Source of the DNA: a virus
IMG/VR virus record: IMGVR_UViG_3300025154_000049
Location: 32,001 to 96,000 of that record
Reading direction: 5' to 3' (one strand)
DNA: 64,000 nucleotides
Shown here: positions 17,994 through 61,514 of the stretch, one piece after another
Position numbering within the stretch: the first letter of the stretch is position 1
Layout: every line of letters begins with the position of its first letter
The notes under the pieces: model-generated
The model's database searches: none
The model's input: the letters and a program-made list of their open reading frames with translations, nothing else
What the model was told of the DNA's origin: nothing
Position numbers and translations under genes: made by a program

Positions 17994-18350
17994 TTAAATA
18001 TTATCTGTAAGTTCTAGCATCATTTTTATACGGTCTATTATATCTTTATCTATAGTAGGTAATTGATGTATGAATAAATAATATTCATATTTGTCTACTT
18101 TTTTAACGTCTACCTCATATATCTTAAATATTCTAACTATTTCTTCTATAGTTAATATTTGATGAGTAAGAATTTGTTCTAAGTTAAAATATCCACTAAA
18201 AGTTTCTATCAAATCTAAAGGAAGTTTATAATTTTCCACTAAAGATTTAAAATTTACTTTATACTGTAGACAAGCTAATAAATCCCCATCTAAAATTTTA
18301 TAATTATTCATGAATATATCGTTATATTCATTATTAAGAAAACCACTCAA
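17994..18350 (-). CDS. Helical-repeat hypothetical protein, C-terminal xEL tag
   Basis: Ends KMMLELTDNI; HQILTIEEI repeat. Confidence 0.65.
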   Translation of the reverse strand: MSGFLNNEYNDIFMNNYKILDGDLLACLQYKVNFKSLVENYKLPLDLIETFSGYFNLEQILTHQILTIEEIVRIFKIYEVDVKKVDKYEYYLFIHQLPTIDKDIIDRIKMMLELTDNI

Positions 18351-18427
18351 TACAAATTCCTTTAAATAATCTAATATTTAAAGAATAGCATAGTAGTTTA
18401 TATAATGCAAGCTCTTGTAAAGATATA

Positions 18428-18817
18428 TTAAGATATTAATTCATAGAAGGTTTGGAGTCTTAATTTAGCATTTAGAGTTAATTTCTGAGTTTGTACTATT
18501 ACAGGTATATATTCTCTTAATAGTACCATATTATCTATTAAAAATTTTTGAGGATAATTATTTCTACATAGAACAGAGGATACATTTAATTTATGTTTGA
18601 AATTTATTAAAATATCTTCAGTTATTATTCCAGTTAGAGAATAAGCTTCCCAGTGCATCTGATATTCAAACTCTTTTAGGAATGCCACTGTCAATTTATG
18701 GGTAGAACTTATACTTATGTTAAAAAAAGAAACATTAGCACTAAGAGCTTTTCTTTCTCTCTTGTTAAGTTTCTTCCAGTTCTTTATAAAATATTCTTCT
18801 TTAGGATTCTTATACAT
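18428..18817 (-). CDS. Helical-repeat hypothetical protein, C-terminal xEL tag
   Basis: Ends QTFYELIS; THKLTVAFLKEF and TQKLT repeats. Confidence 0.65.
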   Translation of the reverse strand: MYKNPKEEYFIKNWKKLNKRERKALSANVSFFNISISSTHKLTVAFLKEFEYQMHWEAYSLTGIITEDILINFKHKLNVSSVLCRNNYPQKFLIDNMVLLREYIPVIVQTQKLTLNAKLRLQTFYELIS

Positions 18818-19087
18818 TTTTCTTACTTAGTATTTTTAATGATAATTCCCCACATCTAAGACATTCTGAAAAGCATACTAAGTCAAATCCTTTCTCGTTT
18901 TCTATCTTACGAGCATGTATAATTATTTTTCTATGCTCCTCGCAATAATTTTTTCCCATAAAACCCCCATAGATTATTATAACATATTTTAAAAAATTAC
19001 GCAATACCCTATTGACAAAACATTTACAAAATGTTATAATGTATATGTAAAGTGGTAAATTTATAATCGTAACTTGGGAGGAATAGG

Positions 19088-20002
19088 ATGTCAGAGGACA
19101 AAAGACAAGAAGTTATTTTAAGGGATGAGCGTGGTAATAATATTATAGAAGTAAATCCAGACAATATTGCGAAAAATCTTGTGGCAATGACTAACAGGGC
19201 AGATATAATGACCCCAGAGGATAAGAAGTTCTTTATAGAGAACACTGAGCGTTGGAGCATGGTACAACAGAATTGTCATATATGGAGAACTAATACAGAA
19301 AAACGTAGTATTTTATCTGAGTTGCCAACTACTCATCTTAAATTTCACCAAGCTATACTAGAAAATAAAGTATTTGTTGATGAAACTGTAAGATTAGCTA
19401 AAGATGCAGAAATTCAAAAGTTAGATGCAGAAGAGTTATATGTAGATATAGAGAATCTAAAAGAAGAAATAGCAGATTTAACAGAACAAAGAAGTGAATA
19501 TGAAGAAGATAGTAGTGAATATAAACAATTTTCTTATAGAATAAGAAAAAAAGATATAGAAATAAGAAAAAAGACAGTAGAATTACAAGAAAAAGCTTAT
19601 CAAATACAACAATCTGCTATTGCCATGGGGTACAGAATGGCTGAAAATCGTGCGTGGAAACAATTTGAAGATGAAATGATAGATGAAATGAGAGCAGACG
19701 GTCTTTCAGACGAAGAAATATGGGATAAAAATTCCGCTCAACTCCTTGGGTATTTCTATTTATTCTTAACTAAGTTTAATGCTGTTAAAAGTTCTACGGA
19801 TAGTGGAGAAGTTCACAATTTAACTTACTTAGCAAGATTCGCTGTAGATGAAATAATAAAGATAGGTAGCTTTGAGGATGCAGTTATTAGATGTGATAGG
19901 ACTCAGATTCAATCTTTGGTAGAATTAGGTTATATAGGAGTTAAAGAAGAGAATGGTAAATTATCAATAATGATACCTGAGCAATATAAAAAGAAAATAT
20001 AA
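19088..20002 (+). CDS. Coiled-coil phage protein
   Basis: 304 aa; sigma70 promoter TTGACA-N17-TATAAT at 19012-19040. Confidence 0.75.
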   Translation: MSEDKRQEVILRDERGNNIIEVNPDNIAKNLVAMTNRADIMTPEDKKFFIENTERWSMVQQNCHIWRTNTEKRSILSELPTTHLKFHQAILENKVFVDETVRLAKDAEIQKLDAEELYVDIENLKEEIADLTEQRSEYEEDSSEYKQFSYRIRKKDIEIRKKTVELQEKAYQIQQSAIAMGYRMAENRAWKQFEDEMIDEMRADGLSDEEIWDKNSAQLLGYFYLFLTKFNAVKSSTDSGEVHNLTYLARFAVDEIIKIGSFEDAVIRCDRTQIQSLVELGYIGVKEENGKLSIMIPEQYKKKI

Positions 20003-20062
20003 TTTTTAGTCTATTGACAAATTTTTAATCTCCTTGTATACTATGTATAAGGAGATTTTTTA

Positions 20063-20677
20063 ATGATAAAGATATGTGTTATATGTAAAAAAGAATTTGA
20101 AGCTAAAAAGTCAGCTATTACCTGTAGCTCAGAATGTTCTAAAATACAAAAATACAATAAAAGAAAGATATATAAAGAGAAGAACAAAGATTTTATAAAT
20201 AAACAAGCTAGAGAATGGTTTTCCAACAATAAAGAGAAAACTTCAGAATGCCATAAGAAGTATAGAGATGCCAATAAAGATAAAATTAAAAAATATCGGG
20301 ATACTTGGTATAATAAGAATAAAAATTATAAATTTAGAATACAGAACGATTTATCTTTTAAATTTGTTTTCAATATCAGACAGTGGTTTAATAGAGCCTT
20401 TAGACACAATAAGAAAAGTAATAAAACTTTTCAATACGTAGATTATACTTTTGAAGAATTTAGAGAGCATATAGAAAAACAGTTTAAAGAGGGAATGTCT
20501 TGGGATAATTGGACTAATAGGGGATGGCACGTAGACCACATAAAGCCTATCTCTAAATTTAATTTCTTTAATGAAGATGGAACAGAGAACATAGAGCAAG
20601 TTAAAGAATGTTTCTCCTTAAATAATTTACAACCTTTATGGGCTAAAGATAATTTAAGTAAGGGCAATAGGTATTAA
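20063..20677 (+). CDS. HNH endonuclease (homing-type)
   Basis: CxxC..CSxxC N-terminus; MSWDNW...WHVDHIKP...NLQPLWAKDNLSKG; own promoter at 20014-20042. Confidence 0.85.
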   Translation: MIKICVICKKEFEAKKSAITCSSECSKIQKYNKRKIYKEKNKDFINKQAREWFSNNKEKTSECHKKYRDANKDKIKKYRDTWYNKNKNYKFRIQNDLSFKFVFNIRQWFNRAFRHNKKSNKTFQYVDYTFEEFREHIEKQFKEGMSWDNWTNRGWHVDHIKPISKFNFFNEDGTENIEQVKECFSLNNLQPLWAKDNLSKGNRY

Positions 20678-20681
20678 GTAC

Positions 20682-25782: not shown

Positions 25783-26370
25783 TCAAGTATAATATTGCCT
25801 AATGTAACAACAATTACATATAGGAAGGTATTCTAAATCGTCTCCCTCCAATATATTTACATCTTCCCAAACTTCACTAGGAAGTCCATTTACTCTTCTT
25901 AGAATCTTAGTAGCTCTTTTATCTCCACAAAAAAGACATTCAGAAAATAACCTAGTAATCTTATCTGCTCGCTCCATGAACATGTTCATTTTATTAAAGG
26001 AAGAACCTTTAAAATCAAATTCTAATCCAGAAGCTATTATACTTATATTATTCTCTAAACAATAATTAACAATATCCCTAAAGAAGACTACCCAATCTGT
26101 TATAAACTGTACTTCGTCTATATAGATAGTTTCTAACCTGTATAAACTATCACTGCTCTCATGCTCTTTTATTGTTCTTAAGATATCTTGGGAGTTATCT
26201 ATCTTTATCGCTGGATATTTTAATCCGCTCCTTGAAGTAATAAACCCGTCTTCTGTTCTTATATCTACTGAAGGGTAAAAAACTCTAAACTCTCCTTCGT
26301 CTTCAGATATTTTTCTGATAAGTAATTCACTCTTTCCACTCGCCATTGTCCCCGTGATAATCTCAATCAA
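25783..26370 (-). CDS. tdk: Thymidine kinase
   Basis: GTMASGKS, IYIDEVQF, SGLEFDFKG, CLFC and CNCC zinc motifs. Confidence 0.9.
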   Translation of the reverse strand: MIEIITGTMASGKSELLIRKISEDEGEFRVFYPSVDIRTEDGFITSRSGLKYPAIKIDNSQDILRTIKEHESSDSLYRLETIYIDEVQFITDWVVFFRDIVNYCLENNISIIASGLEFDFKGSSFNKMNMFMERADKITRLFSECLFCGDKRATKILRRVNGLPSEVWEDVNILEGDDLEYLPICNCCYIRQYYT

Positions 26371-26735
26371 TCAACTAACTCCTTTAATGTCAAATATTTA
26401 TTTCTATAGTCAATTTCACTAAAAATCTTTAGGTCTAAATAATTTAAATCTATTTTAGATAAGTTATTGGATATGAATTTATCTAATAAATGATTACGAT
26501 TCTCTAATAAGTCTAGTTTAACTACAGATTCTTGTTGAGAATTGTTTGCCCAGTATCTAACTACAAGATAATAGCCAGATTTTTTAATTTCCATAAAAGA
26601 TTCAATATGTTCACATCTCTCGTCATAGTATTTAAAATCAAAACAATCTAGTATATGTTCTATATATGAAACTGTTCCTATATCAAGTCTTCTTAGTTCT
26701 GTCTTATCTTCACTAAACTTCCAAAATTTTCCCAC
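26367..26735 (-). CDS. Hypothetical protein, C-terminal xEL tag
   Basis: Ends LTLKELVD; sigma70 promoter at 26766-26794. Confidence 0.65.
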   Translation of the reverse strand: MGKFWKFSEDKTELRRLDIGTVSYIEHILDCFDFKYYDERCEHIESFMEIKKSGYYLVVRYWANNSQQESVVKLDLLENRNHLLDKFISNNLSKIDLNYLDLKIFSEIDYRNKYLTLKELVD

Positions 26736-27899: not shown

Positions 27900-28127
27900 C
27901 TAAATATAATATAAATTATTTATAATGAGTAAATCATGTAGATTTTTACCTAATCCACAAGACCAACAACCAGTATAATATGTATGTGGAATGGGAGATT
28001 GGTTATCTCTAGTACTTATAACCTCCTCGACACTTATTACACAATTAGTGTCTATATTTCTAATAACTTTGAATAGTATTGTCCTACAATTGGGACAACA
28101 TAAATAAGAACCCTCGTAGATAATCAT
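27900..28127 (-). CDS. Small Zn-ribbon protein
   Basis: CPNC...CWSC. Confidence 0.55.
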   Translation of the reverse strand: MIIYEGSYLCCPNCRTILFKVIRNIDTNCVISVEEVISTRDNQSPIPHTYYTGCWSCGLGKNLHDLLIINNLYYI

Positions 28128-28714
28128 AAAGACCCTCTGAGTTCATTCAACATTTCTATTTTATATATAAAATCTTTATCTTTTTTATATAGTTTTTTAA
28201 GATTACTATATTCTAAAAGAGTGTCTAAATCAAAACTAGCTAAATATTTTTCTATAAATTCTTTAGTTAAATCGTCTCTTTCAGATATCCATTCCCAGTC
28301 TATTATAGAATGTTTATCCACTATAAGTTTTTCTAGCCTAGGCAAAGAAGCTCTTTTGTTAATACCTCTAACTATGTTATTATCTTTCCAAATCATTTGA
28401 GGTCTATTTAGAAAATGGTCAAGTATGTTATCTGTTAATAATATAGTATGTTCTATCAGTATGTCATAGTTCCAATATTCTTTTAATTCTTCACACTCTA
28501 AAAGTTCTTTGCTATAGTTTTTTCTCTTAGACAGTTCCCAGAAATGTAACTGGTTTCTATATTTTAAGATAAAATCCTCTGGTAGCCTATATCTCCATTG
28601 GCAACTGAGGAAACCCCACATTATATAATGTAGGTTTAAAGTACCATCATCCATTTCTTTGTAATCTCTAAGAAATCTTTCAGTATATTTATATCTATGT
28701 CTTTCTGTATACAT
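28124..28714 (-). CDS. Trp-repeat-like helical protein, C-terminal xEL tag
   Basis: IDWEWISERDDLTKEFIEKY repeats; ends EMLNELRGSL. Confidence 0.65.
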   Translation of the reverse strand: MYTERHRYKYTERFLRDYKEMDDGTLNLHYIMWGFLSCQWRYRLPEDFILKYRNQLHFWELSKRKNYSKELLECEELKEYWNYDILIEHTILLTDNILDHFLNRPQMIWKDNNIVRGINKRASLPRLEKLIVDKHSIIDWEWISERDDLTKEFIEKYLASFDLDTLLEYSNLKKLYKKDKDFIYKIEMLNELRGSL

Positions 28715-32290: not shown

Positions 32291-32590
32291 TTATAATTTA
32301 AATTTTGAATATAATAATTCGATGAATTCGTCAGATTTTATTTCTTTTATTGAAAATGTTGTCTCTTCTTCATTAGCATGTTTAAAAACTACATTTTTAC
32401 CCTGTTTACTCATGGAAGATGTTATATTGAATGATTTAATATAATCATTTATAGAGTTCCATATATAGTTTTCTGCATCTTCGTAGCTAAAAAATGCTCC
32501 TAGGAAAGATTCCTCTGTATAGAACTCGGAACCCATAGGATGAGTTCTATAGTCTATGGTAGTATCTTCTTTAATTACACAATAAATCAT
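32291..32590 (-). CDS. Hypothetical protein
   Basis: 99 aa ORF. Confidence 0.6.
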   Translation of the reverse strand: MIYCVIKEDTTIDYRTHPMGSEFYTEESFLGAFFSYEDAENYIWNSINDYIKSFNITSSMSKQGKNVVFKHANEEETTFSIKEIKSDEFIELLYSKFKL

Positions 32591-32940
32591 AATAATTCCT
32601 CTATGTATTTGACCTCTTCGTAGTAATCAGACCCATTTATAATACATCCTTTCATTTTTTGGATGTACTTCTTAAGAAAAAATTTAACTTTGGGATTTAA
32701 TCTTATGAATTCTTCTAAACTAAGACTTTTCTTTTTAACGTTATTACAGAGAGTACAACAAATTAACAAATTATTTAAAAATGTATTCCCTCCCGATGAT
32801 TTTGGAATCACGTGGTCTAAGCTTATCTTTCTTTTTTCGTCAAAAGACCTACCACAATAGCAACATTTAGCATTTACTTTACGTGCGTAGTCCTTTAACT
32901 GTTTCTTAAGAGATTTTATTGGCTTTTTTGGTGTTGTCAT
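32587..32940 (-). CDS. HNH endonuclease (McrA-like)
   Basis: CCYCG, SLDHVIPKSSGG, NLLICCTLCNNVK; ends YIEELL (weak tag match). Confidence 0.85.
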   Translation of the reverse strand: MTTPKKPIKSLKKQLKDYARKVNAKCCYCGRSFDEKRKISLDHVIPKSSGGNTFLNNLLICCTLCNNVKKKSLSLEEFIRLNPKVKFFLKKYIQKMKGCIINGSDYYEEVKYIEELL

Positions 32941-33509
32941 TCTACTAATTCCTTGAATACATTATATTGATTCCAAGATTCTTTTTGCATAGTAACTTTA
33001 CTCTCTACATTCCAAGAAGAAAAAGCTGTCTCTGGGGAATAGGAATAACTAACAGCACCTGTATTATTTTTAATATCCTTTAAAACACTCTCAAAAATAT
33101 ATAACTTATCCCACCATTTATTTTTTTCTATTAATTTACCTATTTCTTCTGCAACTAATCTTTTCTCCCTGCTATGATTTTCCAAGATAGTTAAATAGGA
33201 GGAACTAGATTTATTATTAAGTTTTTTTATGAAAGGAATTAAATCCTTTCTAATATTAGCTCTTTTCTTTCTTAGAACATCTCCAGACCTGTATTGTATT
33301 AATTCTCCCTTATCTAGTTTATCTATAAATTGAGGAGGAGTTAAATCACAATCAACAGCCTTCCAAATGTATCCCCCAGATTCGTGAATATTTTCTAATC
33401 TTATTACATTAAAGTCTAATGTACTTAAAGATTTTCTTATAGAACTAAGAGAGGAATATATAACATATCTAATTTTATTATTTTTGGAATATTTATATAT
33501 TTTTCTCAT
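32937..33509 (-). CDS. Hypothetical protein, C-terminal xEL tag
   Basis: Ends NVFKELVE. Confidence 0.65.
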   Translation of the reverse strand: MRKIYKYSKNNKIRYVIYSSLSSIRKSLSTLDFNVIRLENIHESGGYIWKAVDCDLTPPQFIDKLDKGELIQYRSGDVLRKKRANIRKDLIPFIKKLNNKSSSSYLTILENHSREKRLVAEEIGKLIEKNKWWDKLYIFESVLKDIKNNTGAVSYSYSPETAFSSWNVESKVTMQKESWNQYNVFKELVE

Positions 33510-33904
33510 GATACTAATTCCCTTAACATTTTTAATCCGTTAATATCTTCTTCAGAAAGATAAGGGAGAGTATTATAGTTAGTAAGATATCCACTAAATA
33601 TTAAACATCTTACCAATTCTTTTCTAAGTTGTTTCAATGTTGTCCTGTTAGTTATTTCATAATCGGTAAATATTAATTCTGAAGAGTTAATATGGGAATC
33701 ATGATATATCTTATCTTTGAAGGATAATTTAAATTTATTATTAATATCAAAAACTATACTTTCCAATTCAGTAGTTCTATATTGGAAAGTTCCATAATGG
33801 TCAAATATCTTTTTTAATTCCTTAAAGACATTAAAATCTTTAAGTTGTCTGGAGAACAGTCTCTGACCGTTAATATTTAAAAGTATAAAATCCCTTAACT
33901 GCAT
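33506..33904 (-). CDS. Hypothetical protein, C-terminal xEL tag
   Basis: Ends KMLRELVS. Confidence 0.65.
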   Translation of the reverse strand: MQLRDFILLNINGQRLFSRQLKDFNVFKELKKIFDHYGTFQYRTTELESIVFDINNKFKLSFKDKIYHDSHINSSELIFTDYEITNRTTLKQLRKELVRCLIFSGYLTNYNTLPYLSEEDINGLKMLRELVS

Positions 33905-34158
33905 AATTCCTTCATACTTCTTTTAGTGTAGTATTCTAAACATTCATCCTTTTCAAAGTATTCTCTATGACCAGATACTAATAATTTTCCTAAGTATTGT
34001 AACTTGTTATCACAAAATTCAATAGGAAAATCTTTTTGTTTAAATCTGTCATGAAAATTATTTATATAAGTACATCTACAATTATCAGGTACTAAGGGAT
34101 AAATATTATTTAACTTGTTTCCATGTTTTTCTAAATAAACTCTACCCATTTGAAACAT
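33895..34158 (-). CDS. Hypothetical protein, C-terminal MxEL tag
   Basis: Ends RSMKELCS. Confidence 0.65.
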   Translation of the reverse strand: MFQMGRVYLEKHGNKLNNIYPLVPDNCRCTYINNFHDRFKQKDFPIEFCDNKLQYLGKLLVSGHREYFEKDECLEYYTKRSMKELCS

Positions 34159-42374: not shown

Positions 42375-42959
42375 TTAATTGCCTGTGAGTTCTAGTAACA
42401 TACCTAATCTACATTTTAAATCCTCTGATAAATTTGAATTTTCTAAGATATTCTTTAATTGATAATTTTCTATTTGGTCATATCCTTCATTATCTAAAAT
42501 ATATTGAACTAACTCAGTAGGACACTGACCTATAAAAAATGTAAAAAAATTACTAAACGAGAAATCCATCAATCTAACATCAAACTTTGCTTTATTAAAC
42601 GCAAATCTATTTATTATTATATGAAGGATATCCTTTTCTGTTATATTGGTTCTTTTTAATTTTCCATGAAAAACTGTCCTAGTTATGAAACATTGAAATT
42701 CTTTATAATTCACTTTTTCTTTTGGAATATGTATTGTATGATTAGGTAACTCTATGTAATAATACCCAAGAGCTATTATCTCCGTAGCTTTGTTTGGTAT
42801 TATTAACTCAGAAGGGTCATTGTTATAATACTTTATCTCTTCTATCTGCATGGAAGATTCTAATATTCTTATATTTTTAGTATTACCTTTTATAGCATTA
42901 TTTCCATAATCCCTTGGTTTAATATTATACTTTTCCATAAAAGAAGCTAGGTTACTCAT
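42375..42959 (-). CDS. Hypothetical protein, C-terminal xEL tag
   Basis: Ends GMLLELTGN. Confidence 0.65.
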   Translation of the reverse strand: MSNLASFMEKYNIKPRDYGNNAIKGNTKNIRILESSMQIEEIKYYNNDPSELIIPNKATEIIALGYYYIELPNHTIHIPKEKVNYKEFQCFITRTVFHGKLKRTNITEKDILHIIINRFAFNKAKFDVRLMDFSFSNFFTFFIGQCPTELVQYILDNEGYDQIENYQLKNILENSNLSEDLKCRLGMLLELTGN

Positions 42960-44185: not shown

Positions 44186-44404
44186 TTAATCTAATAATTC
44201 TCTCATAGATATTAAACTTTGTACATTATCACTAAATATTCTACCCTCTGTCTCAAATATTTTCTTTAGTTCTTTTAATGACGTATTATTTATAACAGAA
44301 TAATTAGTACTTGGAATTTCCTCCATAATTACTGTTTTATGTAAAGTTCCAGTTTCAGTTAATTTATAGATATCCAACTTATCTAGCATATAAATAGTTT
44401 TCAT
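44186..44404 (-). CDS. Hypothetical protein, C-terminal MxEL tag
   Basis: Ends ISMRELLD. Confidence 0.65.
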   Translation of the reverse strand: MKTIYMLDKLDIYKLTETGTLHKTVIMEEIPSTNYSVINNTSLKELKKIFETEGRIFSDNVQSLISMRELLD

Positions 44405-44967
44405 GTTAATTCTCTCATCATTTTAAGTTTAAATTGAGCTTGTGTTGGCAGATGGGATAATTTTAGATATTTAATATCCAATAAGTCTAAATTCTTTAAA
44501 ATGAATTCTTCAGACAGCTTTTGAAATTTAGAAAGCATCCTAGAAACTTCTTTAAAATTCTCGGGGCACTCCAATTTTATTAATTCTAATAAATGAATAC
44601 AGGAATATTCAGATAACTTTTGTATTTTTAGTAAGGGGATTACAGTACTTATATCTATTATGTTATCATTTTTTGAACGTATTAGGATATCTAAATGGCT
44701 ATCTAAAAATCTTTCTGTATAATTTAATTTAACATAAGTAATTTCGGTATAGTTATGAGGGTCTCCAAACACCTGTTTAACTAAAGCATTCAATAAAATA
44801 CCTTCTTCAAGTTCTAACTCTTTTTCTACTCTACCCATTTTTAGTTTTCTACAAGAATGACCGTGGGTAAGAGAAAACCACCTATATTTATTATCTTCTA
44901 TATCAGAAAAAATTTTAGTGTAGTCGTACCACTTAGATAGTTTTACTTCTTTAGTTATCTTTTTCAT
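44401..44967 (-). CDS. Helical-repeat protein, C-terminal MxEL tag
   Basis: QKLSE repeats; ends KMMRELT. Confidence 0.65.
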   Translation of the reverse strand: MKKITKEVKLSKWYDYTKIFSDIEDNKYRWFSLTHGHSCRKLKMGRVEKELELEEGILLNALVKQVFGDPHNYTEITYVKLNYTERFLDSHLDILIRSKNDNIIDISTVIPLLKIQKLSEYSCIHLLELIKLECPENFKEVSRMLSKFQKLSEEFILKNLDLLDIKYLKLSHLPTQAQFKLKMMRELT

Positions 44968-45458: not shown

Positions 45459-46055
45459 TTAGTCTTCGGTAAGTTCTTGCATTAACTTTATTCTTATCTT
45501 AAAATCTTCTGGTATATTCTTGAAATCCCCACTCAGCATGTATTCTCTATTATGATGCTTAGGACATATAGAGTGAAACATTTTCCAAAAAAGGTCTTCA
45601 TATAAGTACATATATTTACAATGTCTTAGATAATTTTCTACTAATATACTATCATCTATATATTTTAACCAAAAGGATTCAGGTAAAGGAGGTATCTCGT
45701 CTTTAAATAAAAAATTTAATACTATCATATCTCTATCACAAGTATGTAAAGTATCTAATAACATCTCTAATGCAAAAACATCTCTATGTGCTTTATACAT
45801 AAAATAGAAATATACTATATTTTCTTTATCATGCCCCATATAAGCATTTATAACGGCTTGCTGGAAGACATATTCTGGTATCTTTTCCACTAATTGAGGA
45901 TGCAATGGTAAAACATCTCTGTAAATGCTAGGAGCTTGGTTGTTTTTTATTAAGTTTATTACTATATCTAGGCATACATCTTCTCGATAGTAATTCCTAT
46001 TTAAAAAGTCATTTAACTTTTGATAATCTACACATGTTATAAAATCAAAATTCAT
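45459..46055 (-). CDS. Hypothetical protein, C-terminal MxEL tag
   Basis: Ends KLMQELTED. Confidence 0.65.
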   Translation of the reverse strand: MNFDFITCVDYQKLNDFLNRNYYREDVCLDIVINLIKNNQAPSIYRDVLPLHPQLVEKIPEYVFQQAVINAYMGHDKENIVYFYFMYKAHRDVFALEMLLDTLHTCDRDMIVLNFLFKDEIPPLPESFWLKYIDDSILVENYLRHCKYMYLYEDLFWKMFHSICPKHHNREYMLSGDFKNIPEDFKIRIKLMQELTED

Positions 46056-46058: not shown

Positions 46059-46352
46059 TTAATCACACAATTCCGATAGGGCAAGATACCTGTGTGTAAT
46101 CTCGTCCATATCTTCCGATTTATATATAACGTCTGTATTCTTTTCATAGTCTTCTAAGGCTTTAGAGAAATTAATGTATTTAAAATTCTGTCCCATATCT
46201 ACAAATCTACCACTATTAGAAATAAAACCATGACTGACACCATCTATGGGAGTCTTCAGACCTGCATGGATTACGCTAATCTCATTTATGTATTTTAGGG
46301 ATAACCCTTTGTTATCCCTAATTATATAATACATAGTCTTTTTACGTTTCAT
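46059..46352 (-). CDS. Hypothetical protein, C-terminal xEL tag
   Basis: Ends LALSELCD. Confidence 0.65.
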   Translation of the reverse strand: MKRKKTMYYIIRDNKGLSLKYINEISVIHAGLKTPIDGVSHGFISNSGRFVDMGQNFKYINFSKALEDYEKNTDVIYKSEDMDEITHRYLALSELCD

Positions 46353-48114: not shown

Positions 48115-48752
48115 ACCAATCCCTCCAGAATCTTGGCTTCCTCCGAGATTCTTTCTTTATATTTGGATATAAAGTGCCCATGATAGTCTCTATTGTAGGT
48201 TTCGTAGTCGTCTCTTACTGAACTATTATAATATTTATCTCTATCTTTGAAGTACCCTTTAAGCTGTTCAAAGGATACGGGAGTATAATTCCACTTATCC
48301 ACTCCCACGTCAGTGGATAATCCATAATCGGGACAGGTATTGTGTACATGACCATAGAGATGCCAAGCACCGTGGAAAGAACGATTCCAGCTTCTATGTG
48401 GATAGTGGGAGAGGTAAATATATTGACCTTCTACCGTTATACTCTTACCTTTATACATACCTTGGATTAAACCGTCTATCTGCATCTTTTTATATACTTG
48501 TTCCGTATCGTGGTTTCCAAGAATTAAAAATTTCTGTCCGTTTAGCATGGGTAGGATGTGCCTATAATTCTGATGTCCCCATATCATGTCTCCCAGCATC
48601 CAAATAGTATCTTTTTTCGTAACAACAGAATTCCAGTTATTTATTAAAGCTTCGTCCATCTCCTCGACACATTTATAAGGTCTGTTGCAATACCCTATAA
48701 TATTTTTACTTCTTATGTGAGTATCTGCTATAAAAAATACATTAGGTTTCAA
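48108..48752 (-). CDS. Calcineurin-like metallophosphoesterase
   Basis: ADTH, LGD, GNHD, SHYP, YGHVH, DVGVD. Confidence 0.88.
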   Translation of the reverse strand: MKPNVFFIADTHIRSKNIIGYCNRPYKCVEEMDEALINNWNSVVTKKDTIWMLGDMIWGHQNYRHILPMLNGQKFLILGNHDTEQVYKKMQIDGLIQGMYKGKSITVEGQYIYLSHYPHRSWNRSFHGAWHLYGHVHNTCPDYGLSTDVGVDKWNYTPVSFEQLKGYFKDRDKYYNSSVRDDYETYNRDYHGHFISKYKERISEEAKILEGLVC

Positions 48753-49039
48753 GATATTAACTCCTCCATCATTATTTTTGTATTTATATAGTCTTTTGCT
48801 TCTTTAACAGTATTAAATTCATACCAAGTACTATTCTCGTCAGTATCCAAAGAATAGTTTATAGTAAACATAAACACAGAAAATGGTATTTTAATATAAT
48901 CCATCCGATTACTTTTATAGTATTCCTCATGGAATACTTGTTTATCGTATCTATAGAGTAGTTCTAATGGAGAATCGTCTTTAGATTCTCTTACGTATGT
49001 TTTATTAGGGTTTATATTTCCTACTTCAGCAAGTTTCAT
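48749..49039 (-). CDS. Hypothetical protein, C-terminal MxEL tag
   Basis: Ends IMMEELIS. Confidence 0.65.
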   Translation of the reverse strand: MKLAEVGNINPNKTYVRESKDDSPLELLYRYDKQVFHEEYYKSNRMDYIKIPFSVFMFTINYSLDTDENSTWYEFNTVKEAKDYINTKIMMEELIS

Positions 49040-49403
49040 CCGTTAATTCCACCATAGTTAGCACGGACAACATTTTATCTTCGTCTATCCCACCATGTCT
49101 TTCTAATAGAGTATTAATTATATTACAAGGAACGTACCCATATACGTCTTGAACAGGTTCATTTAATGTTTCTGCTAACCAGTTATCAAAAGGTTCTGGA
49201 AATCCTATCTCTAAATGGGAATACTCCACATTTTCATCTTTGGGGGTACAGTAGTGATGAGAACTACCTTGGATGCTAACAGTAAACCCATCTTTACAAA
49301 CTATAGCAGGTCTGGGTAGACTATATTCCAAAAGGGGAGAGCGTTTATATGATGATTTAAGGTATTCTTTTAAATTCATGCTAGATACCGTTTTCTTGTA
49401 CAT
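49026..49403 (-). CDS. Hypothetical protein, C-terminal MxEL tag
   Basis: CKDGFTVSIQ...YCTP core; ends TMVELTDETC. Confidence 0.7.
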   Translation of the reverse strand: MYKKTVSSMNLKEYLKSSYKRSPLLEYSLPRPAIVCKDGFTVSIQGSSHHYCTPKDENVEYSHLEIGFPEPFDNWLAETLNEPVQDVYGYVPCNIINTLLERHGGIDEDKMLSVLTMVELTDETC

Positions 49404-54519: not shown

Positions 54520-54750
54520 TTAATTAACTAATTCATCCATCATCTCAAATCTAAATTCATCTAAAGCTATAAAATTTTTATTTTTTAGTATATACTCTTT
54601 TAACTCTTTTCTATTCATTCCATGCTTATTATGAAACATCTCATGGAAATTTCCTGTTTGAGGTATTTTATTTCGAGATTGAAGTTTCCAACCATCATAT
54701 CCTTCTACCAATAGATATCCAGTTTTAAGTAACCTATTCCAGAATATCAT
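54520..54750 (-). CDS. Hypothetical protein, C-terminal MxEL tag
   Basis: Ends EMMDELVN. Confidence 0.65.
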   Translation of the reverse strand: MIFWNRLLKTGYLLVEGYDGWKLQSRNKIPQTGNFHEMFHNKHGMNRKELKEYILKNKNFIALDEFRFEMMDELVN

Positions 54751-55055
54751 CCGACTAACTCCTCCATAGTTATTGAAGGAATAATAAAATCGTGTACTAT
54801 TTCGTTTGCCAATATTCTTTCTTTAAGACAACGAAGTAACTTAGTTACAGGAGTATCTTCAGAAATTAATTCATTTAATTCTTTTATTATTTCGCAGGGA
54901 CAATTTCTAAGATAAAAAATATTTATTATACGGGACAATCTGTCATAAACATGGGAACTCTTAGCTTGTTGTTTATAATACCTACGTACCTCACCCCGAT
55001 ATTTTTCCATATCATCCAACATAATATTTAGAATAACCCATTTATCTATTATCAT
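54747..55055 (-). CDS. Hypothetical protein, C-terminal MxEL tag
   Basis: Ends ITMEELVG. Confidence 0.65.
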   Translation of the reverse strand: MIIDKWVILNIMLDDMEKYRGEVRRYYKQQAKSSHVYDRLSRIINIFYLRNCPCEIIKELNELISEDTPVTKLLRCLKERILANEIVHDFIIPSITMEELVG

Positions 55056-55282
55056 GAGATTAACTCTATCATAGTTTTTATAGTATCTAGTTCTTCTGTT
55101 ACTATTTCAAAAGGATTGGCACAACAATTTTTATAGAGGTCATCAAAATCAGTAGCTTGAAATTTCATACCCCATTCTCTATAATAGCAATCGTATTCTA
55201 TAGTATAAACTCCTAAGCCAAATTTTAAAACTTGACATAAATGTTTTATTTCTTTATGATATACAAAGAATTTTTCTAGCAT
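55052..55282 (-). CDS. Hypothetical protein, C-terminal MxEL tag
   Basis: Likely start MLEKFF after the tRNA; ends KTMIELIS. Confidence 0.6.
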   Translation of the reverse strand: MLEKFFVYHKEIKHLCQVLKFGLGVYTIEYDCYYREWGMKFQATDFDDLYKNCCANPFEIVTEELDTIKTMIELIS

Positions 55283-55304
55283 AGTATATTTCCTTAAATA
55301 AAAT

Positions 55305-55380
55305 CGCAAGGTGGGGGAATCGAACCCAAATACCGTCTTGAGTTTTGGAGACTCTTATTCTACCATTGAACTAACCCTGC
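55305..55380 (-). tRNA. tRNA-Trp (CCA) with a 5-nt insertion in the T-stem; possibly a pseudo-tRNA
   Basis: GCAGGGT/ACCTTGC acceptor stem, AGTTCAATGGTAGAA D-arm, GAGT-CTCCAAA-ACTC anticodon arm, TTCGATT T-loop. Confidence 0.75.
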
Positions 55381-55594
55381 ATATTTAAATAATATCATAT
55401 ATCGGAAATAATTTCAAGTATTTATTAAGTAATGTTAATTATCTTAAGACCACAACAGATACATCTTGTTTTTCTACATTCATGACATATTTTAATAAAA
55501 GAATTACTTTTTAAAAATTCTTCTCCACATACAATACATTTAGATTTAGCCACACAAGGGAAACCTATCCTTCTAGCACATCTTATACAAAACA

Positions 55595-55879
55595 TTATCC
55601 TATTAACTCCTGCATTATTACCACACTTTGAATATCTGAGAAATTCTCTATCTCGTATAAATCTTGTCTTCGTATACCCAAAATAAGACTATCTTTCCAT
55701 TTTCTATAATTTATTTTATAGACATATTTGAATAAATCTGACAAGTTAGTTCTCATACTAAACATTTGACTTCTATAGATAATATTATCTATAGAATATA
55801 ATAAGATAAAATACCTATTCCTTTTAATAATATATTTTTTATCTATAGACAGGTCATTTTTATTTAATATTATTTTCAT
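55595..55879 (-). CDS. Hypothetical protein, C-terminal MxEL tag
   Basis: Ends VIMQELIG. Confidence 0.65.
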   Translation of the reverse strand: MKIILNKNDLSIDKKYIIKRNRYFILLYSIDNIIYRSQMFSMRTNLSDLFKYVYKINYRKWKDSLILGIRRQDLYEIENFSDIQSVVIMQELIG

Positions 55880-55880
55880 G

Positions 55881-56648
55881 TTACCCTACTGTAAGTTCTA
55901 TCATAGTTCTTAAGGATTGCAATTTTTCAGTAACTTTGTCAAAGTCATTTGAAATATCATATATTGTTTTGTATAGCTCTATATCATTATATTGAGCTAT
56001 ACTATCCTCTTGCATAAAATCTTTACCCATTACAACTTCTACTTTTATCGCATAATCTAATTTTAATTTACCATCAGAACCCATAGGAAAACCCTGCCTA
56101 GCGTTACCCTGATAGGAAAAGTAACTCAACTCCCGATTAACATTAATAATATTAATAGTACTTTTTATTTTTTCCCAATCCTTAGCATGTACGACTCTTA
56201 GGTCTAAAGGAGTATCCCAAGGGAATTTTTTGATATCTCGTTCTGACAAAGTTAAATAAAAATCTTTTCCGTTGTTATTTAAGATTAGAGGGTTAGATAG
56301 TGTATCTGATTGGATACTTAAGGTAGAGGGAGACCCCAAACTCCCAGAGGAACAACTGTACACACGGATAATTGGACTATCCCAATAGAATCTATGTTTT
56401 TGAGAGTCAAATATTTGAAATTCTTTAAGATTCCCTAAATCTCCTCTTATACAAGAAGGAAGAGTAAAATTTATAGGATTATTTGTATTCTGAAAGGGTA
56501 CGAATAAGAAATTAGATATATTTTCTTCTAAAGAATCACATTTGTATTCTTTATAAAAATTTAAATAAGTTATCCTGTAGTAATATACAATACCTGTACC
56601 TCCCAAAGATTCATTATAAGTATCTATTATCTCTCTTATATTTTCCAT
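55881..56648 (-). CDS. Hypothetical protein, C-terminal MxEL tag
   Basis: Ends RTMIELTVG. Confidence 0.65.
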   Translation of the reverse strand: MENIREIIDTYNESLGGTGIVYYYRITYLNFYKEYKCDSLEENISNFLFVPFQNTNNPINFTLPSCIRGDLGNLKEFQIFDSQKHRFYWDSPIIRVYSCSSGSLGSPSTLSIQSDTLSNPLILNNNGKDFYLTLSERDIKKFPWDTPLDLRVVHAKDWEKIKSTINIINVNRELSYFSYQGNARQGFPMGSDGKLKLDYAIKVEVVMGKDFMQEDSIAQYNDIELYKTIYDISNDFDKVTEKLQSLRTMIELTVG

Positions 56649-56683: not shown

Positions 56684-57055
56684 TCATTCTGATAACTCCT
56701 TCATTACTAAAAGGGACTCAAACTCTTCTTTATCTTCAAATTCATGTATTTTAAACTCTCTATAGCTAGTAAAATTAGTTAAATTTAATAAAACATTAGA
56801 TATTCCAAAGCAGGTGGCACTATGCCAACCATTATCTCCTATACTATCGACATCAAAAGCTCTAACATATTGGTACTGTTTCCATTTATCTCCTATGGTT
56901 AGATGAAAATATTTTTTGATATGACAGATACGATGGGTTCCCTCTATAACATAGAATTTTCCAGAGTCTAATGTTTTCAAAGTAAATACAGTATCCCTTC
57001 GGAGACTGTTTTTTCCATTAGGAACCATAGCATATATAGGTAAATCTAGTCTCAT
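56684..57055 (-). CDS. Hypothetical protein, C-terminal MxEL tag
   Basis: Ends LVMKELSE. Confidence 0.65.
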   Translation of the reverse strand: MRLDLPIYAMVPNGKNSLRRDTVFTLKTLDSGKFYVIEGTHRICHIKKYFHLTIGDKWKQYQYVRAFDVDSIGDNGWHSATCFGISNVLLNLTNFTSYREFKIHEFEDKEEFESLLVMKELSE

Positions 57056-57450
57056 TAATTTGTCAACTCTTCCATAACTTTATGCTTTTCATAACTTTCT
57101 ATTAAATATCCCATAATTAAAGGTTTATCTCCTCCCTCTAACTTCTCATCTATAATTTTTAATGCCCGATAGAAAACTTTTTCAGTGGTGTTGTGGTCAT
57201 AGAACATAAATTCTACAATTCTATCTATTAGAGAATATTCATTATAGAACTTTTCATAGCATCTCGATTTGATACAATCATTTATTATATAATATTCTTC
57301 TGGATTATCTGGTCGTATAACACCTAATTCACTATCTAGTATTCCTACAAAACGTTCTCTTACAAAAATAACTTCCATATTCCACAAAGCCATATATTTT
57401 AATATGCTATTTATGGTTTCTCCAAAAGGTTTTATGATATTTAAATTCAT
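57055..57450 (-). CDS. Hypothetical protein, C-terminal MxEL tag
   Basis: Ends KVMEELTN. Confidence 0.65.
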   Translation of the reverse strand: MNLNIIKPFGETINSILKYMALWNMEVIFVRERFVGILDSELGVIRPDNPEEYYIINDCIKSRCYEKFYNEYSLIDRIVEFMFYDHNTTEKVFYRALKIIDEKLEGGDKPLIMGYLIESYEKHKVMEELTN

Positions 57451-57767
57451 CCTACTAGCTCCTCCATACTTTTAACAGCATGAAGTTCATCCAAACTATC
57501 AAGTTCATAAACTTTCTCCTTTGAGAAGTAAGGACGTTTTATATAAGTTAAATAGATATTTATCTCTTGTAATAATTCCCTCTCCCACAAACCGTGGTCA
57601 AAGTGGATATTACCATAAGGATATCCAGAACTATCTTCTTGATAAAATTTCCACAATTTTTCATCTTTATCGAATAGGTACCAGTGGTAATTCTTTCCAG
57701 ATTTAAAAAGATAAATCTTATCTTGATATATGCTATTTATTTTAACATGCTTCTCTAATATTATCAT
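57447..57767 (-). CDS. Hypothetical protein, C-terminal MxEL tag
   Basis: Ends KSMEELVG. Confidence 0.65.
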   Translation of the reverse strand: MIILEKHVKINSIYQDKIYLFKSGKNYHWYLFDKDEKLWKFYQEDSSGYPYGNIHFDHGLWERELLQEINIYLTYIKRPYFSKEKVYELDSLDELHAVKSMEELVG

Positions 57768-58120
57768 GATACAAGTTCCTGCATACTGAAATAAGTATCT
57801 AAAAGTCCTACAATTTCTTCGTCTTCTAAGGGGATTAATAATTTAGCATATAATCTACTATAACCTTCTGAACCTCTATGTTGCAGGTTAAAGGGGAATG
57901 AATACTTTAATTCCTTAGTTTCTTTTTCCAATATACTGATATGGCTAAACACATAATCGGTATTACTTTTTATATATAATATTTCATACTTATAGGTACG
58001 ATGGAATAGGGCAGTGATTATATTTGTTATTTCTAAAATTTCCATAAATTTTAGTTCTAATCTAAGGGGTTCAAATATTTCATATATTTTACATTCGTAG
58101 GATGGTTTTACTAATTTCAT
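57764..58120 (-). CDS. Hypothetical protein, C-terminal MxEL tag
   Basis: Ends FSMQELVS. Confidence 0.65.
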   Translation of the reverse strand: MKLVKPSYECKIYEIFEPLRLELKFMEILEITNIITALFHRTYKYEILYIKSNTDYVFSHISILEKETKELKYSFPFNLQHRGSEGYSRLYAKLLIPLEDEEIVGLLDTYFSMQELVS

Positions 58121-58833: not shown

Positions 58834-58880
58834 TGTTTTAGTCTCTAACTAGATAATCTAATTATAATGTAAAATAAAAG

Positions 58881-59222
58881 TTATCCAGTTAGTTCAGACA
58901 TGGACCTTCTTATCAAATTCTCATTAGATACTCTAATACGTTCTTTTTCTAGGTATTCAGACATTCCTTCTATGGAAACTATTTCCTTCTGAAGATTTAT
59001 GTATAATTGTTTTTCTTTTCCCTTAGAAGTATTTATATCGTGGGGAATTCCGTTTCCATATACAATATCTACCGCTCTTCCAATCATCCAATATTCAGAA
59101 GTATCGTAAAGAAAACTTGTTTTGGCATTGACTGGAACAAGCCATGAATTTTTAACCTTAGTTCTATATTCTTTCAGTATATTGAAGATGATTTCCATAG
59201 CTTTATTTTCATTAATCATCAT
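58881..59222 (-). CDS. Hypothetical protein, C-terminal MxEL tag
   Basis: Ends RSMSELTG. Confidence 0.65.
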   Translation of the reverse strand: MMINENKAMEIIFNILKEYRTKVKNSWLVPVNAKTSFLYDTSEYWMIGRAVDIVYGNGIPHDINTSKGKEKQLYINLQKEIVSIEGMSEYLEKERIRVSNENLIRRSMSELTG

Positions 59223-59454
59223 TACCTAATCCATCTTTTAGATTCCAAGCAACTGTACCGTCTTTTTGTTTTATACCAAAAATAAGAGCATGTTTTATTA
59301 GTTCCGATACACTACTCATACCGAGTTCTTTAGCATATAACTTCATTCTTAACATCTCGTCTTTATCAAATCCGTCAAAACTAACCCTAAACAATTTCCC
59401 TTTCAGAACCTTTTTGGCTCTACGTTGTCTTTTGCTTTTTTTCCAAGTTTTCAT
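59212..59454 (-). CDS. Possible ribbon-helix-helix DNA-binding protein
   Basis: FRVSF...LYAKELGMSSVSELIKHAL. Confidence 0.5.
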   Translation of the reverse strand: MKTWKKSKRQRRAKKVLKGKLFRVSFDGFDKDEMLRMKLYAKELGMSSVSELIKHALIFGIKQKDGTVAWNLKDGLGNDD

Positions 59455-59696
59455 TTTATCAATTCCTCCATTATTATTTCTAAATATTTTTTATCATCGT
59501 AATAGTATTTGTTTATATAATCTAATTCTACTCCATATCCATAATCTTTTTCCGTCTCTTTGTATACCCCACATTTTTGACATTGGTAGAATACATGGTC
59601 ATCTGGAGATAAGAAAGGCTCGCTCATATTTTTTACGATTATCCAGTCATGAAAACAAAATTTCTTTTTAAAGTAATTAATTATTTTATTTTTCAT
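59451..59696 (-). CDS. Zn-binding hypothetical protein, C-terminal MxEL tag
   Basis: FCFHDW...CQKCG; ends IIMEELIK. Confidence 0.65.
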   Translation of the reverse strand: MKNKIINYFKKKFCFHDWIIVKNMSEPFLSPDDHVFYQCQKCGVYKETEKDYGYGVELDYINKYYYDDKKYLEIIMEELIK

Positions 59697-60144: not shown

Positions 60145-60153
60145 AACATTCTC

Positions 60154-60480
60154 CTAATTTATTAATTCTTTCATTGTATCGTATACTTTCTTCTGGTCTT
60201 CTGTAAAATATTCTCTAAGACTCAATTTTTCAATAAATCCTTTTTCTTTTTCTTCTCTATCCATGCTCATTTTAAAAGCTATATCGGGATTAGTGGTGAA
60301 AACTAAGGATAACATAAATCCAGTTTTTAATTCTTCTATCTTTGTTTGAGCATCTACGTAATCTTTTGTAGCCACATCGCTCCAAGACGTACCGTTTATT
60401 GCTTGTACCGTATTTAAATTTACGTTGGAGGTGGTAATTACCTGACCCGCTGTAAAACCATAAGGATTATTTAGGGACAT
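60154..60480 (-). CDS. Hypothetical protein with fibre-like N-terminus and C-terminal MxEL tag
   Basis: NPYGFTAG..., DVATKDYVD; ends DTMKELIN. Confidence 0.65.
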   Translation of the reverse strand: MSLNNPYGFTAGQVITTSNVNLNTVQAINGTSWSDVATKDYVDAQTKIEELKTGFMLSLVFTTNPDIAFKMSMDREEKEKGFIEKLSLREYFTEDQKKVYDTMKELIN

Positions 60481-60482
60481 TC

Positions 60483-60884
60483 TTAATTCACCAATTCATT
60501 CATTACTAATAATTCATGATAGTACTCATTTGGATATTTTTCTAGCACTTCCAGTATACCTGTTTTTAATTTTTTGTTATTTAATAATTTTAGCATATCT
60601 TCCTTATTAAGTAAAGTATGCAATTCTGAAGAATCTTTAAATTGAGTTTCGTTCAGAAGTACGAAAACTATATGGTTTCCCAGATACTTTATTTGAGAAC
60701 GGATACATAGTTTTCTACCAGTATTTGTATTAACTATATTTCTTTTAACTAACATGAGAAAATAGCTAATCTCATCTAAATTTCTATGCCCCATATTATA
60801 CCCTATAGAATTTTTTGGGAACCATTCTTTATTAAGCCATACAGGGTCTAGGTAATAATATTCATTTATTATTTTAGTTGTCAT
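60483..60884 (-). CDS. Hypothetical protein, C-terminal MxEL tag
   Basis: Ends LVMNELVN. Confidence 0.65.
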   Translation of the reverse strand: MTTKIINEYYYLDPVWLNKEWFPKNSIGYNMGHRNLDEISYFLMLVKRNIVNTNTGRKLCIRSQIKYLGNHIVFVLLNETQFKDSSELHTLLNKEDMLKLLNNKKLKTGILEVLEKYPNEYYHELLVMNELVN

Positions 60885-61215
60885 TAGTTAATTCTCTCAT
60901 TATTAAATAAGGCTCTATGTCTGGATACTCAGTACATTTGAATTTACTATATTCCAAATCTGACAATCCATAATTTATCATGTAGTCATAACAACCTGCC
61001 ATAGAATGAAAATCTTTGGGTTCTATTGTTTTCTTCTTGACCTTGCCCTCGGAGGATATATAATTACTTACGGTTTCTATTGATAAGTTATCTCCTTCTC
61101 TGTATATGAATTTAGATTTCCAGAAGCATCTATCGTATCTTTCCTTAATAGGTTCTATAAGATAACATTTATTATTTTCATATACTTCACGTATTACATA
61201 ACTTTTAAAATCCAT
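60874..61215 (-). CDS. Hypothetical protein, C-terminal MxEL tag
   Basis: Ends LIMRELTNDN. Confidence 0.65.
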   Translation of the reverse strand: MDFKSYVIREVYENNKCYLIEPIKERYDRCFWKSKFIYREGDNLSIETVSNYISSEGKVKKKTIEPKDFHSMAGCYDYMINYGLSDLEYSKFKCTEYPDIEPYLIMRELTNDN

Positions 61216-61514
61216 TAAGTGGTTAGCTCCAACATTGTAAATAATTTAGTTGCTTCATCTTTAGCTAGGATAGCAAATCCTATAAAGAACTCTTCTATGG
61301 CTTCTTTTGGTATTCTGGGAAATGTTCTAATAATTCCTTTGACGACCTCTCTTATTAAATTATCATCCGTAGCGTACCAAATTTGATAATGCCCCATCAT
61401 GTCAGAGAATAATATAAATTTTCTATCGTCATTTATGTATAGTTTTATACTAGAATGGGGATAATACCTCGATATTAATATATTAACTATGCTAGTTAAT
61501 TTTTCAGGATTCAT
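61215..61514 (-). CDS. Hypothetical protein, C-terminal MxEL tag
   Basis: Ends FTMLELTT. Confidence 0.65.
   Translation of the reverse strand: MNPEKLTSIVNILISRYYPHSSIKLYINDDRKFILFSDMMGHYQIWYATDDNLIREVVKGIIRTFPRIPKEAIEEFFIGFAILAKDEATKLFTMLELTT

Follow-up and report, generated by a model that had tools for sequence, protein, structure and literature searches.

A clade-specific C-terminal helix on about a hundred small phage proteins: a candidate docking handle

Introduction

Why should about a third of the genes in one phage genome, most of whose products resemble no known protein family, end in the same peptide? The question is raised by a 64,000-nucleotide stretch of viral DNA (the window), which comprises bases 32,001-96,000 of a single 158,517-bp virus contig (IMG/VR record IMGVR_UViG_3300025154_000049). 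A preliminary description of this window had listed 33 minus-strand open reading frames (ORFs), two of them weak matches, whose products finish in a motif of the form [M/L]-x-E-L, and had interpreted this tail as a portable signal routing diverse proteins to one partner. Here we report that the tail is a portable, clade-specific C-terminal module that is kept at the amino-acid level, and we weigh the proposal that its helix is a common recognition or docking handle, to which we give about an even chance. Coordinates are those of the window unless marked as genome positions.

The phage of the window (G0) has a G+C content of ~30%, and the minus strand carries nearly all genes of the window. The large terminase of G0 shares only ~30% identity with its counterparts in cultured phages (of the Maribacter, Ralstonia RP13 and Vibrio SIO-2 types), and a megablast search with an 8-kb piece of the window against cultured phages returned no match. 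Two relatives from IMG/VR were compared with G0 as whole records, namely a close one (G001; 190 kb, with terminal repeats and a terminase 86% identical to that of G0) and a more distant one (G002; 170 kb, terminase 60% identical).

Results and discussion

A conserved tail on a third of the genes

A greedy ORF caller yielded 310 ORFs in the G0 genome, whose products were aligned on the stop codon and numbered from the C-terminus (-1 being the last residue). Under a strict definition of the motif, [ML].EL[VIT] within the last nine residues, it is present in 83 of these 310 ORFs, whereas 1000 trials of shuffling within proteins gave 0.22 on average and at most 3. It starts exactly six residues from the C-terminus in 69 copies, and just 14 copies lie more than 12 residues from an end. 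A looser form, [MLIV].EL, raises the number of tagged ORFs to 106, with exactly two residues after the Leu in 83 of them; in the remaining ~20% of the tails, 0, 1 or 3-9 residues follow it. Additionally, one ORF (genome 130946-131206) has an internal tail (..ALMMRELTE with 13 more residues behind it), as if a stop codon had been lost, indicating that the motif can survive away from the very end.

The tagged genes run well past the window, up to genome position 153 kb, and make up about a third of all G0 genes, that is ~100 small proteins, 31 of which are encoded in the window (Table 1). The structural module (genome 1-49.9 kb) has 54 genes and not one tail, as opposed to 106 tagged ORFs among the 229 others on the minus strand. 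The preliminary description thus transcribed each of its 33 C-termini correctly, and was right in expecting an excess over shuffled C-termini and in placing the late structural proteins outside the tagged set. It undercounted the extent of a real motif, which occurs on ~100 genes across the genome rather than 31-33, and spans 18-20 residues rather than four. The two weak matches have the endings that were given for them, but these are probably due to chance. The assignment of the tagged genes to early sigma70 operons fares less well: promoter-like consensus sites do occur in the gaps upstream of the arrays, but overall they are no commoner than in shuffled sequence. Judging from these promoter-like sites, the tagged proteins are probably expressed early.

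The consensus of the tail is [TSD]-x-[ED]-E-[IVL]-[DN]-x-[YFL]-[LKR]-h-M-x-E-L-[VIT]-x-stop. More specifically, G0 tails show D/E at -14 and -13, a hydrophobic residue at -12, D/N at -11, Y/L/I at -9, L/K/R at -8, M/T/V/S at -7, M at -6 (62 of 83), an invariant E-L at -4/-3 and V/I/T at -2, followed by a last residue that is most often S (21), N (13), G (10), E (9) or D (6). The frequent S/T/D at -16 resembles a helix cap, the N-cap is acidic and a short strand often precedes it. AlphaFold models place a predicted amphipathic helix of 18-20 residues on precisely this shared stretch; the earlier label of a 'short helical motif' is hence upheld by prediction as to the helix, but not as to its length. 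In a helical-wheel projection, the i, i+3, i+4 residues M(-6), L(-3) and V(-2) would form a hydrophobic patch beside the invariant Glu, and this patch would face another side than I(-12), Y(-9) and L(-8).

The same tail recurs in both relatives. G001 has ~108 tagged ORFs with the consensus seen in G0, and G002 has 65-75 with a distinct but related tail, ..TDxKEINKYLM[TMIV]xELLK, which aligns with that of G0 position for position. It ends in L-K and not V-x, has M as the commonest residue at -7, K/R at -1 in 61 of 63 tails and K at -10 in 54 of 63. The conserved polar residues of the helix among the G002 paralogues would be hard to explain by folding alone. By blastp, none of the motif-bearing G0 bodies has a match in G002, as against both of the chance-tagged genes and 59 of 204 untagged proteins.

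Selection on the peptide and the Shine-Dalgarno overlay

The codons of the tail reveal at which level it is conserved. In the 83 tails with two residues after the Leu, all six Leu codons are used at -3 (TTA 38, CTT 20, CTA 10, TTG 9, CTG 4, CTC 2), in genome-like proportions (TTA 46% in tails against 51% in the genome, CTT 24% against 17%), with C as the first base in 36 and T in 47. Across 68 pairs of G0-G001 orthologues, with a synonymous divergence (dS) of ~0.55, the Glu at -4 has undergone 17 synonymous and no amino-acid changes, and the Leu at -3 has undergone 28 and none. Genome-like Leu codons, together with a Glu and a Leu that stay fixed while their codons change, show that purifying selection acts on the peptide, in agreement with what had been surmised from the synonymous variation of the codons. 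The ratio of non-synonymous to synonymous divergence (dN/dS) is 0.20 for the tagged bodies and 0.086 for untagged genes, which implies that the tagged ORFs are real genes evolving about twice as fast as the rest.

A second signal is laid over these codons. In 50 of 83 tails (60%) the x codon ends in G, and the Glu is encoded by GAG in 46% of G0 tails against 26% genome-wide (73% against 40% in G002); the x-E codons form a GGAG/GGAA that sits 8 nucleotides (nt) before the ATGA stop/start overlap. Two residues follow the Leu in 93% of the tails whose stop overlaps the next start, compared to 63% of the others, indicating that translational coupling tightens the distance of the motif from the stop. 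The tail thereby has the GGAG-like core 5-10 nt before the next start that is typical of a Shine-Dalgarno element, but its conservation is not at the nucleotide level, nor is it confined to sites before a downstream start: 32 of the 83 exact-position tails have no overlapping start, and E-L is found at -4/-3 in just one of 23 untagged genes with the same 1-4-nt stop/start overlap. Moreover, conservation extends to 42 nt before the stop (D/E at -14 and -13), too far for any ribosome-binding site. The Shine-Dalgarno sequence is an overlay on the tail codons that helps to position the motif and is not its cause; the preliminary description had likewise held that the motif is not merely the Shine-Dalgarno sequence of the next gene.

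At least three types of tagged bodies

With the tails removed, blastp joins just one pair among the 106 G0 bodies, and across the three genomes its other links between bodies are 1:1 orthologues only. Pfam searches with the 106 tagged proteins recovered only an RNA ligase, an HNH and a DUF488 domain, each on a chance weak match, and PHROGs offered no match for nine tagged proteins of the window. Iterated profile searches with the bodies alone joined 33 of them (23 from G002, 6 from G0, 4 from G001) into a beta-rich family (alignment A3) with a strand-strand-strand-helix-strand-helix layout, itself without a PHROG match; only two untagged proteins entered it, one of which has a decayed tail. 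The AF2 model of a member shows a beta meander and a helix (predicted local distance difference test, pLDDT, 76; tail helix 77-84). The profile of this family retrieves 83 cluster representatives among 1.84 billion proteins, almost all of them 72-125 residues long and nearly all ending in ..ITDxxEIxKxLMMxEL... A body-only profile built from these sequences scores tagged above untagged bodies (p = 1e-4 in G0 and 8e-13 in G002). It reaches an E-value below 0.01-1 for only 4-10 of 89 G0 bodies. Despite 33 linked bodies and a significant shift in scores, most G0 bodies stay unlinked. Tagged bodies are also richer in Tyr and Trp than untagged ones.

A second group, comprising the products of 17994, 18428, 28124 and 44401 and of one G002 gene, is predicted to consist of all-alpha repeats. 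The AF2 model for 17994 has eight helices (pLDDT 70), with the tail helix at 102-115 predicted at low pLDDT, and orthologues of 28124 retain the tail down to 37% identity. A third type is provided by 49026, whose core (alignment A7) is matched by homologues from ten records of cultured phages (Curvibacter, Acinetobacter, Pseudomonas and Vibrio phages) and by two from metagenomes. The four tail-less homologues that were aligned end a few to ~25 unrelated residues after a conserved HGG, and the 19-residue extension IDEDKMLxxLTMxEL.. is found only on members of the present clade; on one contig with a tail-less homologue (L036) the neighboring genes, too, lack tails. In this case comparison of the sequences demonstrably makes the tail an add-on, and the preliminary description had proposed such a comparison with this core as its example. 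The predicted folds, a beta meander with a helix as against an all-alpha arrangement, with the 49026 core as another domain, do not reduce to one common fold. On these models the tail is found on at least three unrelated body types; the earlier characterization of its carriers as 'mostly unrelated' holds to that extent, but has to give way for the 33 bodies that form one paralogous family.

Structural comparisons did not place these bodies further. The beta-rich model gave nothing convincing in the PDB with Foldseek (best E-value 0.38) or VIA-align (best Z 3.9), and its ESM Atlas matches to LPD16 and the Tis1 immunity protein (template modeling score 0.51-0.56) are unconvincing. The all-alpha model had a best Foldseek E-value of 1.8, PDB profile searches with the beta-rich family and with the tail (profile A1) retrieved no match, and an ESM Atlas feature search gave no usable match.

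Turnover of the tagged arrays

Comparison of G0 and G001 shows how the tagged set changes. There are 87 1:1 orthologues among the tagged genes of the two genomes, while 18 and 21 are private to one genome, and there is a single real loss of the tag. The private genes are whole cassettes, situated between orthologous neighbors that are directly adjacent in the other genome. At two such sites (genome 139486-141000 against G001 85710-86560, and genome 130946-131849 against G001 77142-77770) the crossover points fall within the M-x-E-L codons and the ATGA junction is intact. In the first, the tail at G001 86039 is chimeric: its 5' codons are those of the tail at genome 140479, and from ATG-AGA-GAA onwards the tail and junction of 139815 follow; in the second, the tail at G001 77417 joins the body of G0 131505 to the junction of G0 131203. 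More generally, 38 of 214 G0-G001 homology breakpoints lie within -10 to +40 nt of a tagged stop, as opposed to 11 expected and a maximum of 22 in 2000 trials. Crossovers in the repeated tail codons thus allow tagged genes to be gained and lost in frame with the stop/start junction kept, providing the phage with a route to change its accessory genes without breaking the translation of the operon. Recombination at the tails looks like a consequence of the repeat rather than its cause.

When the motif is removed from 29 bodies, the tree built from them is star-shaped, with 18 of the 21 G002 members on one side. With such a tree, a concerted change of the tails is indistinguishable from separate expansions; the former, if it produced the genome-specific tails, would point to a co-evolving reader.

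A proposed docking handle and its rivals

We posit that the tail helix could act as a handle, with the hydrophobic M(-6)/L(-3)/V(-2) patch beside the invariant Glu as its recognition face. One partner, of phage or host origin, would read the tail, and in this manner many fast-evolving accessory proteins would be handled as one class. A more specific version, which we advance tentatively and at less than even confidence, is an address label: a single reader would grip ~100 fast-evolving early proteins by the M-x-E-L-V helix, and these would be recruited, timed or used as adaptors together, with new genes joining the tagged set by recombining into the array at the tail. Several points weigh against a docking handle, which is plausible but has a purely putative partner. 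In the paralogous part of the set, the helix might be no more than the best-conserved part of the structure: the 33 bodies are linked without their tails, the body-only profile separates tagged from untagged proteins, and the pLDDT of the predicted tail helix in the beta-rich model is that expected if it packs on its own sheet. A few founders that expanded independently would suffice to explain the genome-specific variants of the tail. Finally, a tblastn search with six further tagged proteins against 50,697 phage records gave no match, leaving 49026 as the only one of the tagged cores searched that has tail-less relatives.

An alternative that we regard as unlikely is that the tagged proteins are one hyper-diverged multigene family, grown by tandem duplication and unequal crossing-over at the tail repeats, in which the helix is the slowest-evolving part of the core and has no common partner. 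The near-absence of untagged proteins among the linked bodies, their shared layout, the end helix that nearly all of their metagenomic matches retain, the clustering of the G002 members in the body tree, the Tyr/Trp enrichment and the tandem arrays with cassette indels all fit this picture. It is at odds with the different predicted fold of the all-alpha group, with the separate domain of 49026 that is tail-less elsewhere, and with the small fraction of G0 bodies that the body profile reaches; further, a helix with a purely structural role would not usually show an invariant Glu, a Met that is nearly so and conserved polar positions. A narrower and fairly improbable form of docking is a C-terminal degron or timer, whereby a protease or unfoldase of the host or the phage would clear the early proteins together, or the tagged proteins would be adaptors delivering bound host targets to it. 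As this would have it, the tail is found at the C-terminus, or close to it, throughout a class of proteins that are probably early, and the tag encoded by the transfer-messenger RNA (tmRNA) of the phage ends in ..KMALVA, with its L-V in register with the E-L-V-x of the tail. T4-type prohead proteases cleave at [LI]-x-E, which the M-x-E of the tail resembles. Against a degron, the last residue is mostly polar or acidic (S, N, G, E, D) in G0 and G001 and K/R in G002, unlike the non-polar C-degrons of the ClpX/Tsp type, and the varying number of residues after the Leu indicates that a fixed free carboxylate is not required. Membership among SsrA/ClpX-type degrons, for which a non-polar, LAA-like end is expected, was rejected on these endings. 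The only phage protease that we found is a metallopeptidase fused to a von Willebrand factor A (vWA) domain, for which a role in virion assembly has been proposed (PMC7824862).

Two alternatives remain. In one, the peptide would be a passenger, and the tail would be maintained chiefly because the next cistron has its ribosome-binding region in these codons, or because termination-reinitiation is tuned by the nascent peptide. The G-ending x codons, the GAG enrichment, the GGAG ahead of ATGA and the more exact spacing of coupled tails agree with such an expression element; it is nonetheless very unlikely in view of the genome-like first bases of the Leu codons, the Glu and Leu that outlast codon drift, the reach of the conservation beyond any ribosome-binding site, the exact tails that have no overlapping start and the coupled untagged genes that lack E-L. 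In the other, the repeat exists as a DNA-level recombination linker by which cassettes are shuffled, comparable to the sequences at module boundaries in mosaic phages or, by analogy, to the attC sites of integrons. Although the two chimeric G001 tails and the excess of breakpoints near tagged stops would follow from it, the tails have little nucleotide identity in common beyond ATG..GAR.YT, their synonymous sites are free to drift and mosaic breakpoints at gene ends are expected anyway; we consider it the most improbable of all.

Comparison with known tails and expansions

No equivalent tail was found in Pfam, PHROGs, the PDB or the searchable literature, in line with the preliminary description, whose author knew of none. 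Several systems offer partial parallels. The clamp-binding tails of T4 and the acidic tails of T7 gp2.5 and gp4, which dock on the polymerase, are likewise short C-terminal peptides common to otherwise unrelated phage proteins and read by one partner. However, they occur on 3-10 DNA-handling enzymes and have an acidic or aromatic tip, whereas the G0 tail is an 18-residue helix with an M-x-E-L-V core on ~100 small proteins of no known family, and the recognizable enzymes of G0 lack it. A sliding-clamp-binding peptide proper (QL[SD]LF-like or aromatic, on replication or transcription proteins) was discarded, as the G0 consensus has neither a Gln nor an aromatic pair and its carriers belong to no Pfam family. 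So was a T4-type capsid targeting sequence, which occupies the N-terminal ~10 residues of late, packaged proteins and is cleaved after [LI]-x-E; the G0 tail is C-terminal and absent from the structural module. A membrane-targeting helix was dropped given a net charge of about -2 in the G0 tails.

The poxvirus ankyrin proteins with F-box-like PRANC domains and the multigene families of African swine fever virus resemble the G0 set in combining fast-evolving, variable paralogues with a conserved C-terminal element, tandem arrays and turnover in copy number. These are eukaryotic viruses, with a domain of ~40 residues and a known partner, the SCF (Skp1-cullin-F-box) ligase, as opposed to the short helix of a phage. 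Bacillus phage G shows a lineage-specific expansion of ~35 zinc-ribbon genes (Iyer et al., 2021; PMC7824862), similarly a large expansion of one small-protein type in a single genome; there a whole recognizable domain is expanded, while in G0 most copies share only the tail, the copies are about three times more numerous and the folds differ. The E-block signals of Legionella Dot/Icm substrates and the cargo-loading peptides of encapsulins are comparable as unstructured-to-helical C-terminal signals on diverse cargo. The E-block has Glu at about -10 to -17 and a hydrophobic residue near -3, where G0 has E/D at -14/-13 and L at -3. Nevertheless, the consensus differs, the tagged genes have no linked secretion system or shell partner, and the promoter-like sites that precede the arrays point to early expression and not to packaging into the virion.

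Most small early phage genes belong to no known family and have been studied singly; here one peptide unites about a third of a genome. The tail could place ~100 proteins of no known function in G0, and hundreds more in related phages, in one pathway. Should a single partner recognize it, no larger system of shared tags would yet be on record for a phage, and proteins in that host could be tagged with a natural, portable handle of ~18 residues; under the address-label version, a third of the genes of the phage would constitute one tagged proteome.

Table 1. ORFs of the window with the C-terminal tail, followed by the two weak matches (window coordinates).
Coordinates	Strand	Length (residues)	Tail	Remarks
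17994..18350	-	118	..RIKMMLELTDNI	all-alpha repeat body
18428..18817	-	129	..RLQTFYELIS	variant tail; same all-alpha repeat family as 17994
26367..26735	-	122	TLKELVD	
28124..28714	-	196	MLNELRGSL	all-alpha repeat family
32937..33509	-	190	VFKELVE	
33506..33904	-	132	MLRELVS	
33895..34158	-	87	SMKELCS	
38858..39334	-	158	SMRELTT	
42010..42372	-	120	VLKELID	last gene before a gap
42375..42959	-	194	MLLELTGN	
44186..44404	-	72	SMRELLD	
44401..44967	-	188	MMRELT	all-alpha repeat group
45459..46055	-	198	LMQELTED	tail without Shine-Dalgarno-like codons; promoter-like site 45455-45427 directly after
46059..46352	-	97	ALSELCD	
48749..49039	-	96	MMEELIS	
49026..49403	-	125	TMVELTDETC	core domain tail-less in other phages
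54520..54750	-	76	MMDELVN	
54747..55055	-	102	TMEELVG	
55052..55309	-	85	TMIELIS	
55595..55879	-	94	IMQELIG	
55881..56648	-	255	TMIELTVG	largest tagged body
56684..57055	-	123	VMKELSE	
57055..57450	-	131	VMEELTN	
57447..57767	-	106	SMEELVG	2 relatives only among 5.8 billion proteins
57764..58120	-	118	SMQELVS	
58881..59222	-	113	SMSELTG	operon end
59451..59696	-	81	IMEELIK	
60154..60480	-	108	TMKELIN	
60483..60884	-	133	VMNELVN	
60874..61215	-	113	IMRELTNDN	
61215..61514	-	99	TMLELTT	
32587..32940	-		YIEELL	HNH endonuclease; weak match, probably chance and outside the system; G002 homologue without tail
37776..38846	-		LYELI	T4 Rnl1-type RNA ligase; weak match, probably chance

Candidate readers and neighboring genes

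A MoxR AAA+ ATPase and the above-mentioned fusion protein, in which a vWA domain is joined to an HExxH metallopeptidase (DUF2201_N), are encoded next to the first tagged genes (15211-16371 and 16491-17903, minus strand); the pair is 50% identical and syntenic in G002. The metal ion-dependent adhesion site (MIDAS) motif of the fusion, DISGS, and its HExxH motif are intact. MIDAS sites bind an acidic residue flanked by hydrophobic ones. As the invariant tail Glu between hydrophobic residues resembles such a ligand, the fusion protein was chosen for complex prediction, in which it (alignment A6) was combined with a 32-residue alignment of the tail (A5), Mg and Zn; the resulting score of 0.00 speaks neither for nor against binding. 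The same fusion occurs in jumbo phages, where the role in virion assembly was proposed (Iyer et al., 2021; PMC7824862), and its position at the end of the structural module of G0 fits that role.

Elsewhere on the genome, a GroES-like co-chaperonin (L031:244-540, genome 116241-116540; phrog_3188, E-value 8e-27) has a counterpart with 44% identity in G002. Fourteen tRNA genes are followed by a circularly permuted, two-piece tmRNA (L031:7791-9175, genome 123.8-125.2 kb), whose tag peptide is GNNTVSLDFGRKMALVA. Three paralogues of ~740 residues that end in EKFNTQI[TS]LP (21050-23290, 23308-25518 and 34988-37201, minus strand) have no Pfam match and no homologue in G002. A 283-residue protein (30594-31445, minus strand) matches PHROG 323 ('transcriptional regulator, D5-like'); it is among the few non-structural proteins that are well conserved between the G0 and G002 lineages, being 57% identical to a G002 protein that lies within the tagged arrays of that genome.

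An RNA-repair set is interspersed among the tagged genes, consisting of the Rnl1-type ligase (37776-38846), an Rnl2/PHA02142-type ligase (46353-47396), RtcB (52493-53698) and a weakly supported Pol-beta/MTPAP-like nucleotidyltransferase (40929-41840); on the contig of a relative, an ART-PolyVal gene is found in the same neighborhood. No obvious DNA polymerase was seen in G0 among the large proteins scanned, and its contig is 32 kb shorter than the terminally repeated G001; given both observations, the G0 contig may be incomplete. Within a tagged array there is also a lone tRNA-Trp (CCA) at 55304-55381 on the minus strand, just downstream of a promoter-like site at 55417-55389.

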